IMG/VR virus record: IMGVR_UViG_2534682157_000015
Reading direction: 5' to 3' (one strand)
DNA from: a virus
Lineage: Duplodnaviria > Heunggongvirae > Uroviricota > Caudoviricetes
Length of the DNA stretch: 38,068 nt
Part shown: positions 8,177-10,927 of the stretch, in pieces
Layout: every line of letters begins with the position of its first letter
Numbering within the stretch: the first letter of the stretch is position 1
Notes under the pieces: generated by a model
Databases searched by the model: none
What the model was told of the DNA's origin: nothing
Seen by the model: only the letters and a program-made list of their open reading frames with translations
Program-made: the position numbers and the translations under genes

Positions 8177-8860
8177 CTATGATTGAAGAGCAATCTTTCT
8201 CAACGTATCAAATACAATTTTTGTAAAATTATTTTCATTTTTAACGTCAATGTAAGCAAGAGCGTTATTAGTAATTTTAAGTTTACCAGAATACTCTAAT
8301 GAATTAACGGAGCAAACAAGTTTGTCAATTCTTATTTTCTTCCCCTCTAATTCTTCTTTATAATATTTTCTAAGGTCACTGCTGCCAATTATTTGCATTT
8401 TAGCTGTAGCGTAATCAGCGACTCTAACTCTAGAAATATCCAGCTGTGTTAGATTTATATTCACATTTGAAGATATTTCGTTGAGCCAGTCCATCGGATT
8501 TATATCAATCTCTTCTAGGCTAACGCCTAAGCCAAGATTTCTGACTAAGGCCTGTGAAAACGGTTTTAAAGTTCGCGGAGGGTTAGTAAGTTGCATTATA
8601 GGAAGAGTATCTAAAGATACACTGAAATTAGTAGTGCGGTATTCGACTCTTTCTACGATAGTTTCGCTTCCGTCAAAATTAGAAACTTGATCGTGATAAA
8701 TAATACGCTCAACAAAGCGTCCATGTGCAGAATCATGACGTATTTTATCAAAAATAAACCCTTTCCCCTTATCCTCGGTAAAAGAATCAAGAGAAAGACG
8801 TTTAACAGCTTTTTCAAATTCAAGCCGTATGTTTAATTTGAGCCACTTAACCTTCTTCAT
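8177..8860 (-). CDS. Hypothetical protein, third gene of accessory operon (227 aa)
   Basis: Start lies 14 nt inside the 3' end of the previous gene; no family recognised. Confidence 0.6.
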   Translation of the reverse strand: MKKVKWLKLNIRLEFEKAVKRLSLDSFTEDKGKGFIFDKIRHDSAHGRFVERIIYHDQVSNFDGSETIVERVEYRTTNFSVSLDTLPIMQLTNPPRTLKPFSQALVRNLGLGVSLEEIDINPMDWLNEISSNVNINLTQLDISRVRVADYATAKMQIIGSSDLRKYYKEELEGKKIRIDKLVCSVNSLEYSGKLKITNNALAYIDVKNENNFTKIVFDTLRKIALQS

Positions 8861-9926
8861 GTTCGTTTACCTCTGGTCCTATTATTATATTATAGGCATT
8901 TTCAGCGGCTGACTCAATTAATTCACTAATATGTCTTTTCTCTTGTGCCGTTGCCGCACGAATTGTCACATTGAATCCGTCTTCTTTTTGATTATTTATC
9001 CCTTTAATTTGATAGGCAAAGTCACAGCAATTTTCAGAGTCTTTGAAAAATGCTTCAACGTTAATTCTGTCACCAACTCCACTTGTCGGTTTTGAAGACC
9101 ATGCGATACGGCCTATATAATAACCTTTCTCGTGTAGTTGAGAAAATATAGGCGAACTATTAACACCTTCACCATTCAAAACAGCTTTCTTGACGAATCC
9201 GGTATCGATTGTTTCTTCTTTGTCTTCATCTTCACTTGCGTCAATATTGCGATTTAATTCTACTTTCGTTACATCATCAGTCTCATAACCATGTAGTCCA
9301 TTCATTAACTCTTGAAAGAACTGGCTTCGCAATGTAGGGTCAGTGATTGCCATTAAAGAAATTTCAAAACGTTCAATAGGCTCAGATTTGATTTTAGACA
9401 GCTCGTTTTGCAGACCCTCAATAACTTTTTTTGCCTCAGGATTCTGTGGCATACGTACTTCAACCTTGTCAACACCAGGGCGAAGTTCTATTATGACATT
9501 CCGTTTATCTATTTGACGCAGAGCGGTTTTAGATAAGTCTATTTCTTCATAGTTATATTCTACTGTCAGAGAACCATCTTTTTTCGCTACGATATTCAAG
9601 CTTTGCCCTTTACTGGGTGAACATGTTTTTTTCAATGCTTCAGCTGCGCTCTTTAATTCGGCCTGATTTGTTGTGGTCTGAAAACTCACACTGGTAATGC
9701 TTTCTCTTGGATCATATGTTTTGACCATCTTTTTTATATGCTCTAATTCATTAAAACCATGGGGGAGTTTTGATATTTCCTCGATAAGTATTTCCTTGTC
9801 GAGTTCTGGTGATAAAAAAACACCTCTATTTAGCAATAATTCATGTAATTTTGCAGGGGTTATTCTTTTATGATGCAAAGCATCATAAATATTCTTGTCA
9901 GTCGCAAAGTATAATTTTTTAGCCAT
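8847..9926 (-). CDS. Hypothetical protein, second gene of accessory operon (359 aa)
   Basis: Start overlaps upstream stop; acidic patch SEDEDKEETID; no family recognised. Confidence 0.6.
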   Translation of the reverse strand: MAKKLYFATDKNIYDALHHKRITPAKLHELLLNRGVFLSPELDKEILIEEISKLPHGFNELEHIKKMVKTYDPRESITSVSFQTTTNQAELKSAAEALKKTCSPSKGQSLNIVAKKDGSLTVEYNYEEIDLSKTALRQIDKRNVIIELRPGVDKVEVRMPQNPEAKKVIEGLQNELSKIKSEPIERFEISLMAITDPTLRSQFFQELMNGLHGYETDDVTKVELNRNIDASEDEDKEETIDTGFVKKAVLNGEGVNSSPIFSQLHEKGYYIGRIAWSSKPTSGVGDRINVEAFFKDSENCCDFAYQIKGINNQKEDGFNVTIRAATAQEKRHISELIESAAENAYNIIIGPEVNEHEEG

Positions 9927-10927
9927 TATCGTTGCTCCATCCCAATTTTTTCAAGATTATATTCAACTACAACTTTGTCTGTCTTTTCGAAGTCAAATTT
10001 AAGAAAAAGTCTTTCATCCTCACCTAACAGCCAGTCTGTACTGTATTTCTTTTTAGCTTTTTCAAAATGATGAATAGCATTTTCATTTGGATGGATATGA
10101 CAATGACGTAATAAAATTGGTTTGCCTTCAGTGAGTATCTGATAAGTTGATAGCATGTCAAAAAAGTACACGAATTCATCTAATGAATCACCGGGTTGAT
10201 TGTAATAAACAACATACCCTTCTGGGATATCTTTTTTAAGCCAGCTAAAAGCCTCATGTTTAATTATGATGTATGGCGATGTTAATAATTCAATTGTCGC
10301 AGGTGTTGTTTGGTTGATGGGGTGTTTTATTCTTGTTAAAGAAAGATCTGGGTAATAGTAAGTAAACTTATCAGGCTGTGGAAGTTTTCCAGAGCCTATT
10401 AATTTGGTTATGTCAGAGGATATATTTATTAAATCAGATATTTTATAGGGGTCAAGTAAGTGTAGTTTTATGTTTGGAGGACAATTTATAACGGAATGAT
10501 CTAATTTTTTTGTAATATTTTCATAGAAATCTTTATCATATAGATTATCATGATTATACAAAAATAACAAACCTCTTACATTATAACCTAAAGAATCATC
10601 ATGAACGTATTTCAATCGCCACTCTTCACTTACATTCGCACACTCGGTAGCTAAAGCAAGTGAGGTTAAGGCACCTTCGACCATTTTTTTACCAATAGAT
10701 CCCTCCGCATAGCTCTTTAGATCTGTATTGAGATAGACCATTTCCTCTTCATAAGGGTCTGTGTAGAAAAATACAACATCACTTGGATGGGTTTTCTTAG
10801 AATGTACCTCTTGGCAACATTCCCAATTCATGTCCGCTCTAGCGGCGCGATCCCATTTGAATACAGAGAAAATATCATCAGAAATTTTACCTGCGACTCG
10901 TTGTATAGCCGAAGTTTCTCCACCCAT
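9926..10927 (-). CDS. Hypothetical protein, first gene of accessory three-gene operon (333 aa)
   Basis: ATG with AGGAG SD about 10 nt upstream; AT-rich; stop overlaps next start (TAATG); no family recognised. Confidence 0.6.
   Translation of the reverse strand: MGGETSAIQRVAGKISDDIFSVFKWDRAARADMNWECCQEVHSKKTHPSDVVFFYTDPYEEEMVYLNTDLKSYAEGSIGKKMVEGALTSLALATECANVSEEWRLKYVHDDSLGYNVRGLLFLYNHDNLYDKDFYENITKKLDHSVINCPPNIKLHLLDPYKISDLINISSDITKLIGSGKLPQPDKFTYYYPDLSLTRIKHPINQTTPATIELLTSPYIIIKHEAFSWLKKDIPEGYVVYYNQPGDSLDEFVYFFDMLSTYQILTEGKPILLRHCHIHPNENAIHHFEKAKKKYSTDWLLGEDERLFLKFDFEKTDKVVVEYNLEKIGMEQR

Follow-up and report, generated by a model that had tools for sequence, protein, structure and literature searches.

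Gene organisation and flanking elements

The window analysed here is the whole 38,068-nucleotide stretch of IMG/VR record IMGVR_UViG_2534682157_000015, a P2/186-like prophage. It carries three adjacent genes on the minus strand, hp1 (9926-10927, 333 aa), hp2 (8847-9926, 359 aa) and hp3 (8177-8860, 227 aa), which are flanked on one side by a P2 gpA-type replication gene (5083-7497) and a DinI-like gene that ends at 8082 and is convergent with hp3, and on the other side by the portal gene (12694-13740). The hp1 stop and the hp2 start have one base in common (TAATG, 9924-9928), the start of hp3 overlaps hp2 by 14 nt (8847-8860), and a Shine-Dalgarno-like purine run lies 8-12 nt 5' of each of the three starts. 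All three reading frames have full-length homologues with E < 1e-140, and they are therefore regarded as real genes rather than chance ORFs. The triad has a GC content of 0.352; gene A, by comparison, is at 0.53 and the structural genes are at 0.57. The initial annotation had described three coupled minus-strand ORFs of these lengths, AT-rich, seemingly horizontally acquired and located between replication gene A and the portal gene in the P2 hotspot; the coordinates and overlaps were reproduced exactly, and both the base composition and the flanking genes bear out the remainder of the description. The triad is cargo that the prophage has acquired horizontally in its P2 defence hotspot.

Upstream of hp1, the leader or promoter-proximal region (10928-11175, minus strand) is 84% identical to positions 178-399 of the insert in pFR109, a plasmid discussed below. 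Within it, a cos-like site (GGCGTGGCGGGGATACGAG, 11146-11164) was found as a unique match, with none in 100 shuffles, and represents a backbone feature bounding the operon. The site resembles the P2 cos sequence and places the operon at the right-hand end of the DNA that is packaged. In the P2 and pFR109 inserts (Rousset et al. 2022, Table S2A), the part that contains cos aligns with this site. Promoter-like hexamers on the minus strand at 11075-11048, 11057-11028 and 10960-10931 were no commoner than in shuffled sequence, and since the counts from the promoter and terminator scan as a whole did not rise above those of shuffled sequence, no promoter is claimed. The 94-nt spacer that separates hp3 from the convergent DinI-like gene, for which RNAfold gives -36 kcal/mol, contains two hairpins with perfect 10-bp and 8-bp stems (8092-8120 and 8143-8167), which are probably terminators.

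Correspondence to the 3HP system

Comparison at the protein level shows the operon to be an intact copy of 3HP (Rst_3HP), a known, named and experimentally validated defence system. The PADLOC models matched end to end, covering residues 1-333 of 333 for Hp1 (E 3.6e-234), 1-359 of 359 for Hp2 (E 5e-245) and 1-227 of 227 for Hp3 (E 5.3e-144), and the genes are co-directional in the order hp1-hp2-hp3, as in 3HP. The identification follows from near-identity to the cloned system: the pFR109 proteins, of equal length and aligned ungapped, are 94.9% (Hp1), 95.0% (Hp2) and 87.7% (Hp3) identical to those encoded here. pFR109, listed as 'hp + hp + hp', contains the three genes cloned from E. coli E1114 and expressed from the native promoter, and was reported to 'protect against P1', the sole phage blocked out of eight (Rousset et al. 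2022, Cell Host Microbe). The accessions of an E. coli copy of the locus, 99.4% identical to the present one, also occur among the P2 loci in Table S5A of that study. DefenseFinder uses the name Rst_3HP and PADLOC the models Hp1, Hp2 and Hp3, the system having been catalogued since 2021-2023; a 2024 survey placed Rst_3HP among the systems without a recognisable domain.

The present operon agrees with that of pFR109 in its three genes, their order and lengths, the position in the P2 hotspot and the proximal upstream region. It differs in being an allelic variant, in which Hp3 is the most diverged protein, and in that the prophage carries an M48-like peptidase gene between cos and the portal gene; the combination of 3HP with this neighbour was found in none of the complete E. 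coli genomes in the collection examined and in many draft assemblies. All three proteins proved clearly homologous to components of a system that already has a name, an outcome that the initial annotation itself had listed as refuting; this overturns the earlier proposal of a candidate novel defence system, the operon being the 3HP named in 2022. The proposal that the operon serves anti-phage defence is upheld. The view that the proteins cannot be assigned to a named family holds for reading by eye and fails for database searches. The P1 phenotype belongs to the 95%-identical pFR109 system only, and would extend to the present copy by likeness.

The three genes form an obligate triad. Among 80 related loci from many phyla, 77 carried the complete set in the same order, and the remaining three ended at a contig edge. 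The range extends from Enterobacteria to Verrucomicrobia and Acidobacteria. In Vibrio and Delftia, as in many further phyla, the triad is found without DinI and outside prophages, and the Vibrio and Delftia triads adjoin recombinases. The triad is variable cargo and is also present outside phages, on which grounds a structural or replicative role in the phage was rejected.

Relationship of the subunits to GAPS4 and RdgC

Hp1 carries a PD-(D/E)xK nuclease domain and is a predicted DNase. E4, D50 and D69-x-K71, the catalytic candidates, are invariant in 110 sequences of the Hp1 family, as is P48. The motif reads H47-P-S-D50 ... D69-L-K71, and the strand positions agree with a PD-(D/E)xK core, in which Asp and (Asp/Glu)-x-Lys lie on adjacent strands; the RefSeq product name is likewise PD-(D/E)XK nuclease domain protein. 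The hint of such an arrangement given in the initial annotation was correct for 'TDLK', which supplies the (D/E)xK element as D69-L-K71, and misplaced the upstream catalytic Asp, which is D50 of 'HPSD' rather than the one in 'TDP'. The PD-(D/E)xK nucleases of the defence systems Shedu (SduA) and Hachiman (HamA) respond to DNA ends or aberrant DNA; no sequence family relationship between either of them and 3HP was detectable, the partner proteins differ, and 3HP is without a helicase.

The closest characterised relative is GAPS4, a two-gene system of GAPS4a and GAPS4b (Mahata et al., GMT islands; preprint 10.1101/2025.09.07.674715). The Hp1 HMM matched the characterised E. coli GAPS4a (RiKo) with E 4e-15, and hhalign aligned the Hp1 family with the same protein over 204 columns at 94.7% probability. 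Pfam PDDEXK_GAPS4 is annotated on every listed Hp1 homologue, and NCBIfam GapS4a matched 64 of the 110 family members (best E 8e-15); the present Hp1 itself gave no match to this model at E <= 1. For Hp2, NCBIfam GapS4b aligned to residues 14-311 with E 3e-5, the score of 23 bits comparing with a curated cutoff of 300 bits, and Pfam PF26110 (GAPS4b_N) is annotated on Hp2 homologues. A weak, collinear hhalign match to the single sequence of GAPS4b RiKo was also obtained (E 0.011, probability 4%), and in each of two canonical GAPS4 loci the GAPS4b ORF was the top match of the Hp2 HMM, at a weak E of 0.03-0.18. In the Pfam-A set scanned, apparently without PF26115 and PF26110, which appear solely in precomputed annotations, Hp1 had no match and Hp2 gave sub-threshold noise only. 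Likewise, none of the three family profiles matched a PDB sequence. On these alignments, Hp1 is a homologue of GAPS4a. Hp2, whose N-terminal helical region is conserved and which has an acidic loop at about residues 228-240, would be a distant GAPS4b relative of weak similarity and a candidate partner or scaffold.

The correspondence extends over approximately 200 residues of Hp1, with D50 and K71 aligned to D49 and K71 of GAPS4a, and hp2 occupies the GAPS4b position with the same overlap with the upstream gene. Mutation of D49 in GAPS4a abolishes GAPS4 defence, and the conserved active-site motif of GAPS4a is HGxD...SxK (10.1101/2025.09.07.674715), in contrast to HPxD...DxK in 3HP. 3HP further differs in scoring far below the NCBIfam GapS4a and GapS4b cutoffs, in having hp3 as an obligate third gene where canonical GAPS4 has two, and in a narrower known protection range, P1 alone out of eight phages tested against many phages for GAPS4. 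The four tested 3HP contigs were absent among the GAPS4 homologue table entries listed, and 3HP is not mentioned in the GAPS4 preprint (10.1101/2025.09.07.674715). In combination, 3HP is most likely a three-subunit relative of GAPS4.

Hp3 distinguishes 3HP from the two-gene GAPS4. Two methods returned E. coli RdgC (PDB 2owl), a ring-forming DNA-binding protein associated with recombination, as the top match for its fold, at 10% identity, CENP-L/Iml3 representing a related fold. Hp3 is approximately 75 residues shorter than RdgC, and hp3 is part of a nuclease operon on mobile elements, whereas RdgC is the product of a housekeeping gene. The protein is predicted to be an RdgC-like DNA-binding subunit; it is basic (pI 9.1) with invariant Lys/Arg residues, which would be consistent with a ring-shaped dimer that binds DNA. 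Still, likeness of fold is no proof that Hp3 binds DNA or forms rings, given the 10% identity and the absence of a Pfam RdgC match; indeed, Hp3 matched no Pfam-A family at E <= 1. Neither hhalign nor HMM searches gave any signal for paralogy between Hp3 and a segment of Hp2, or for an Hp3 embedded in GAPS4a or GAPS4b, and no Hp3-like ORF was present within 5 kb of the two canonical GAPS4 loci. A literature search retrieved no mechanism for 3HP and no RdgC-like defence component.

Proposed mechanism and alternatives

GAPS4 is a 2:2 heterotetramer acting as a non-selective DNase that is switched on by DNA breaks, not by a phage protein, and no escape mutants were obtained; it degrades incoming lambda DNA as well as host DNA, and cell viability decreases at high multiplicity of infection (10.1101/2025.09.07.674715). 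With a probability of roughly 0.6, we favour a reading by analogy in which 3HP is a GAPS4-like abortive complex of the Hp1 DNase, the Hp2 partner and the Hp3 DNA binder, triggered by DNA ends or breaks. The three proteins would be produced together from the translationally coupled genes and probably assemble into one complex, in which Hp1 would provide the PD-(D/E)xK DNase, Hp2, as the GAPS4b counterpart, would keep the nuclease in the complex, and Hp3 would contribute the RdgC-like DNA-binding protein that is missing from canonical GAPS4. On infection, the complex would sense free or broken DNA ends, probably engaging the DNA through the basic, RdgC-fold Hp3, whereupon Hp1 would be released, DNA degraded and the infection aborted. 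The assembly of a complex, its DNase activity, the trigger and the abortive outcome are each carried over from GAPS4. P1 DNA is linear on entry and must recombine to circularise, which, speculatively, would suit an end-sensing trigger. More tentatively, and at somewhat short of even odds, 3HP may constitute a distinct, widespread three-subunit branch of GAPS4, with Hp3 as a DNA-end sensor or clamp that licenses the Hp1 nuclease.

As 3HP blocked P1 only and GAPS4 many phages, the trigger of 3HP may differ from that of GAPS4. Hp2 and/or Hp3 could serve as a sensor for a specific phage protein, or as an inhibitor that is displaced by a P1 product, thereby freeing Hp1 as an abortive nuclease. Defence against one phage in eight is typical of protein-triggered systems, and Hp2, with its weak GAPS4b similarity, is without a confidently assigned function; however, the response of GAPS4 to DNA breaks and its lack of escape mutants, as well as the basic character and DNA-binder fold of Hp3, make this reading unlikely. 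The same nuclease and the same ring-type DNA-binder fold could also operate as an end-dependent exonuclease barrier, in which the complex loads onto injected linear DNA at its free ends and degrades this DNA without killing the host, consistent with the degradation of incoming lambda DNA by GAPS4 and with the linearity of P1 DNA until recombination. The destruction of host DNA by GAPS4 and the attendant loss of viability argue against such direct restriction, and no self/non-self discriminator, e.g. a methyltransferase, was found in the operon; we consider it rather improbable.

The position of hp3 next to the DinI-like gene raises a further option, as RecA is the target of both RdgC and DinI: the triad could be a module through which the prophage influences host recombination or SOS, the RdgC-like protein acting beside the DinI-like gene, with defence not its primary role. 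This is very doubtful. The published phenotype, in which the cloned triad blocks P1, largely refutes it; the triad is moreover found without DinI and outside prophages, and the DinI gene is itself conserved P2 backbone, present without the triad in more than a thousand E. coli genomes.

The DNA-break-triggered, GAPS4-like complex is the reading we favour for 3HP. The system itself was already known; what is added here is the link of Hp1 and Hp2 to GAPS4a and GAPS4b, the RdgC fold of Hp3 and the invariance of the triad, through which the previously unexplained 3HP gains testable predictions. Should Hp3 prove to be a DNA-end sensor or clamp, this would provide a concrete, testable mechanism for 3HP and represent an immune role of the RdgC/CENP-L fold, of which we found no description. 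The comparison of 3HP with GAPS4 constitutes a natural experiment on what a third subunit contributes to a two-gene DNA-break sensor.

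Identity and distribution of the hp1-hp2-hp3 triad

The three minus-strand open reading frames hp1 (9926-10927, 333 aa), hp2 (8847-9926, 359 aa) and hp3 (8177-8860, 227 aa), collectively the triad, are tightly coupled, as the initial annotation had described: the stop codon of hp1 and the start codon of hp2 have one base in common (TAATG), and hp3 starts 14 nt within hp2. A purine-rich ribosome-binding stretch is found 5' of each of the three starts. The initial observation is confirmed in its entirety, including the description of the triad as AT-rich and located between gene A and the portal gene, with a GC content of 35.2% as compared to 53% for replication gene A and ~57% for the structural genes. 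The low-GC island holding the triad (~7500 to ~13000), a variable stretch of P2-like prophages referred to as the hotspot, separates a P2 gpA-type replication gene and a DinI-like gene from the portal gene. Outside the island, the window consists of a P2/186-like prophage that encodes an integrase, a CI-type repressor and a Dam-like methylase, along with capsid and tail proteins and an invertase; close to the right end there is a host permease gene.

PADLOC-DB models matched the window proteins end-to-end (Hp1, E = 3.6e-234; Hp2, 5e-245; Hp3, 5.3e-144). Rousset et al. 2022 (PMC9122126) cloned eight additional systems out of the P2 hotspot, and their Table S2A gives three protein sequences for pFR109, a plasmid carrying 'hp + hp + hp' from E. 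coli E1114, the insert being expressed from its native promoter; the cloned genes confer protection against phage P1. Hp1, Hp2 and Hp3 of the window are 94.9%, 95.0% and 87.7% identical to the pFR109 proteins in gapless alignments of equal length, and the 250 bp 5' of hp1 share 84% identity with the insert in that plasmid. Furthermore, the protein accessions of an E. coli chromosome copy (99.4% identical) occur together in the P2-loci table of Rousset 2022, and DefenseFinder-based papers name the system Rst_3HP, which is mostly prophage-borne. In combination, these observations make it practically certain that the triad is a copy of the already named, experimentally validated 3HP system. Consequently, the proposal of a candidate novel system, which homology to a named system was to refute, is overturned by the match to 3HP.

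Within E. coli the triad is rare (18 of 5,426 complete genomes) and falls into two allelic groups (99.8% and ~87% identity); P2-like Klebsiella phages also carry it at ~85% identity. An Hp1-alignment scan with one genome per species revealed relatives in 142 genomes, the use of Hp1-type peptide patterns meaning that the scan samples the 3HP branch and not the whole GAPS4 lineage. The hp1-hp2-hp3 order with tight spacing was observed in 77 of the 80 loci kept, the remaining three ending at a contig edge. Hosts include Gamma-, Beta- and Alphaproteobacteria, Verrucomicrobia, Acidobacteria, Armatimonadetes, Zixibacteria and Syntrophobacterales, among others. The triads of Vibrio fluvialis and Delftia adjoin a recombinase or integrase and are not within a P2 phage; in both, the third gene is clearly homologous to Hp3 (E = 2.5e-31 and ~1e-8). 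All 685 representative clusters of the Hp3 family are ~220-235 aa. The three-gene architecture is thus invariant, and the genes behave as an obligate unit that is mobile.

Among the 77 complete-order triads, three contain a split gene. Decay is seen in four triads: Photorhabdus (L013) and a Pseudomonas (L034) have a split Hp2, Xenorhabdus (L014) has a split Hp1, and an E. coli assembly (L007) has an Hp1 of reduced length (301 aa). The triad on a contig binned as Caldiserica (L045) has the same protein lengths as, and near-equal scores to, that of a marine gammaproteobacterial MAG (L044); any phylum count should first allow for a binning error or a recent transfer.

Other cargo of the prophage

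A cos-like site (GGCGTGGCGGGGATACGAG, 11146-11164) falls within the hotspot and hence divides the cargo in two. Once the genome is packaged, 3HP is at its right end, while an M48-like gene (11477-12559, plus strand, 360 aa, 33% GC) is at its left end, after the cos-like site and ahead of the portal gene. From strain to strain, each side changes independently of the other; at the E. coli GZ2408P locus (L001) ParA and a hypothetical gene replace the M48-like gene. The product of the M48-like gene carries an HExxH motif (HEYSH), matches Pfam Peptidase_M48 over the gathering score (E = 1.6e-5) and weakly matches the phage-exclusion protease Lit (E = 0.002), with no significant PADLOC match and no PDB match. 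The gene had no matches in 50,697 phage records or in complete E. coli genomes; many draft assemblies carry it with or without 3HP, L010 being a locus that has it without 3HP. We regard its product as a candidate Lit-like abortive-infection protease that seems less well characterised than the triad.

Within the late-gene region, GC content drops sharply a second time (21018-21823, minus strand, 34% versus ~56%), and this island holds a 172-aa ORF (DUF6216, E = 4e-10) and a 74-aa ORF on the strand opposite to their neighbours, neither with a PADLOC match, and may be another cargo slot. Next to a Hin/Cin-type invertase (26907-27479, Resolvase and HTH_7), the GC skew is reversed and ORFs run on the minus strand, one of them encoding a glycine-rich domain; 25900-27479 looks like an invertible tail-fibre segment. 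The Dam-like D12-class adenine methyltransferase (4169-5086, plus strand), just 5' of replication gene A and overlapping it, falls in the PADLOC orphan methyltransferase class (E = 2.9e-110) and could shield the phage from restriction.

Hp1, Hp2 and Hp3 in relation to GAPS4

Hp1 has a nuclease fold with predicted catalytic residues. Pfam PF26115 (PDDEXK_GAPS4) is found on every listed Hp1 homologue, the current RefSeq label is PD-(D/E)XK nuclease domain protein, and E4, H42, H47, P48, D50, D69, K71, S72 and Y73 are invariant in 110 Hp1-family sequences. In a confident AlphaFold2 model (pLDDT 91, pTM 0.89), E4 is placed in the first helix, D50 at a strand start and D69-x-K71 on the following strand, a predicted layout that is the classical nuclease arrangement. 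Of the PD-(D/E)xK hint in the initial annotation, the 'DLK' element was right and the first Asp wrong, D50 taking this position in model and alignment.

GAPS4 is a two-gene system of Vibrio GMT islands. According to a 2025 preprint (10.1101/2025.09.07.674715), GAPS4a, a divergent PD-(D/E)xK enzyme (motif HGxD...SxK, D49 essential), and GAPS4b form a 2:2 complex that degrades phage and host DNA once DNA breaks arise; catalytically dead homing endonucleases weaken it. The E. coli GAPS4 sequences were transcribed from the deposited model file of the preprint and compared directly. GAPS4a matched the Hp1-family HMM (E = 4e-15; hhalign probability 94.7%, 204 columns), pairing Hp1 'THPSD50' with 'THGID49' and 'DLK71' with 'SAK71', and the NCBIfam GapS4a model matches 64 of the 110 Hp1-family members, the Hp1 of the window not being matched. 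At the sequence level, Hp1 is accordingly homologous to GAPS4a. Hp2 aligned near full length with NCBIfam GapS4b (E = 3e-5) at 23 bits against a 300-bit cutoff, its hhalign alignment with GAPS4b was weak and collinear (E = 0.011), and Pfam GAPS4b_N is present on Hp2 homologues, suggesting a weak similarity. The position of hp2 and the start/stop overlap equal those in GAPS4 loci. 3HP seems to be built on GAPS4-type parts, yet it falls outside GAPS4 in its active-site motif, in scores below the family cutoffs and in having a third gene.

Hp3 is the 3HP component without a GAPS4 counterpart: two canonical GAPS4 loci, on Ewingella and Pantoea plasmids, have no Hp3-like ORF in the surrounding 5 kb, and Hp3 profiles did not match GAPS4a, GAPS4b or Hp2. 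Hp3 has an RdgC fold, with no RdgC membership at the sequence level in a Pfam scan. RdgC itself forms dimeric rings and binds DNA through the hole at their centre. In contrast to the acidic Hp1 and Hp2, Hp3 is basic (pI 9.1), and several of its Lys and Arg residues are invariant.

Proposed mechanism of 3HP

We assign a GAPS4-like mechanism a probability of roughly 0.5. Hp1, Hp2 and Hp3 would form one complex, in which Hp2 would hold Hp1, by analogy with GAPS4b and GAPS4a, and Hp3 would engage DNA. DNA ends or breaks would be the trigger, and infection would be aborted through DNA degradation. Speculatively, the sensitivity of phage P1 could stem from its DNA remaining linear until recombination. 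A phage protein might be the trigger instead, which we consider unlikely, and direct restriction of incoming linear DNA, the host not being killed, appears slightly less probable still. A non-defence role in recombination or SOS is highly improbable, since both the published phenotype and the existence of triads without DinI or a prophage contradict it.

3HP is already known as a system, and the Pfam family names already imply the link of Hp1 and Hp2 to GAPS4. A 2024 survey listed Rst_3HP among systems without any known domain, 3HP is not mentioned in the GAPS4 preprint (10.1101/2025.09.07.674715), and no description of the three-part reading, with Hp1/Hp2 resembling GAPS4a/GAPS4b and Hp3 an RdgC fold, was found in the searchable literature. 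Rather than a new system, the outcome is a modest, testable mechanistic lead.
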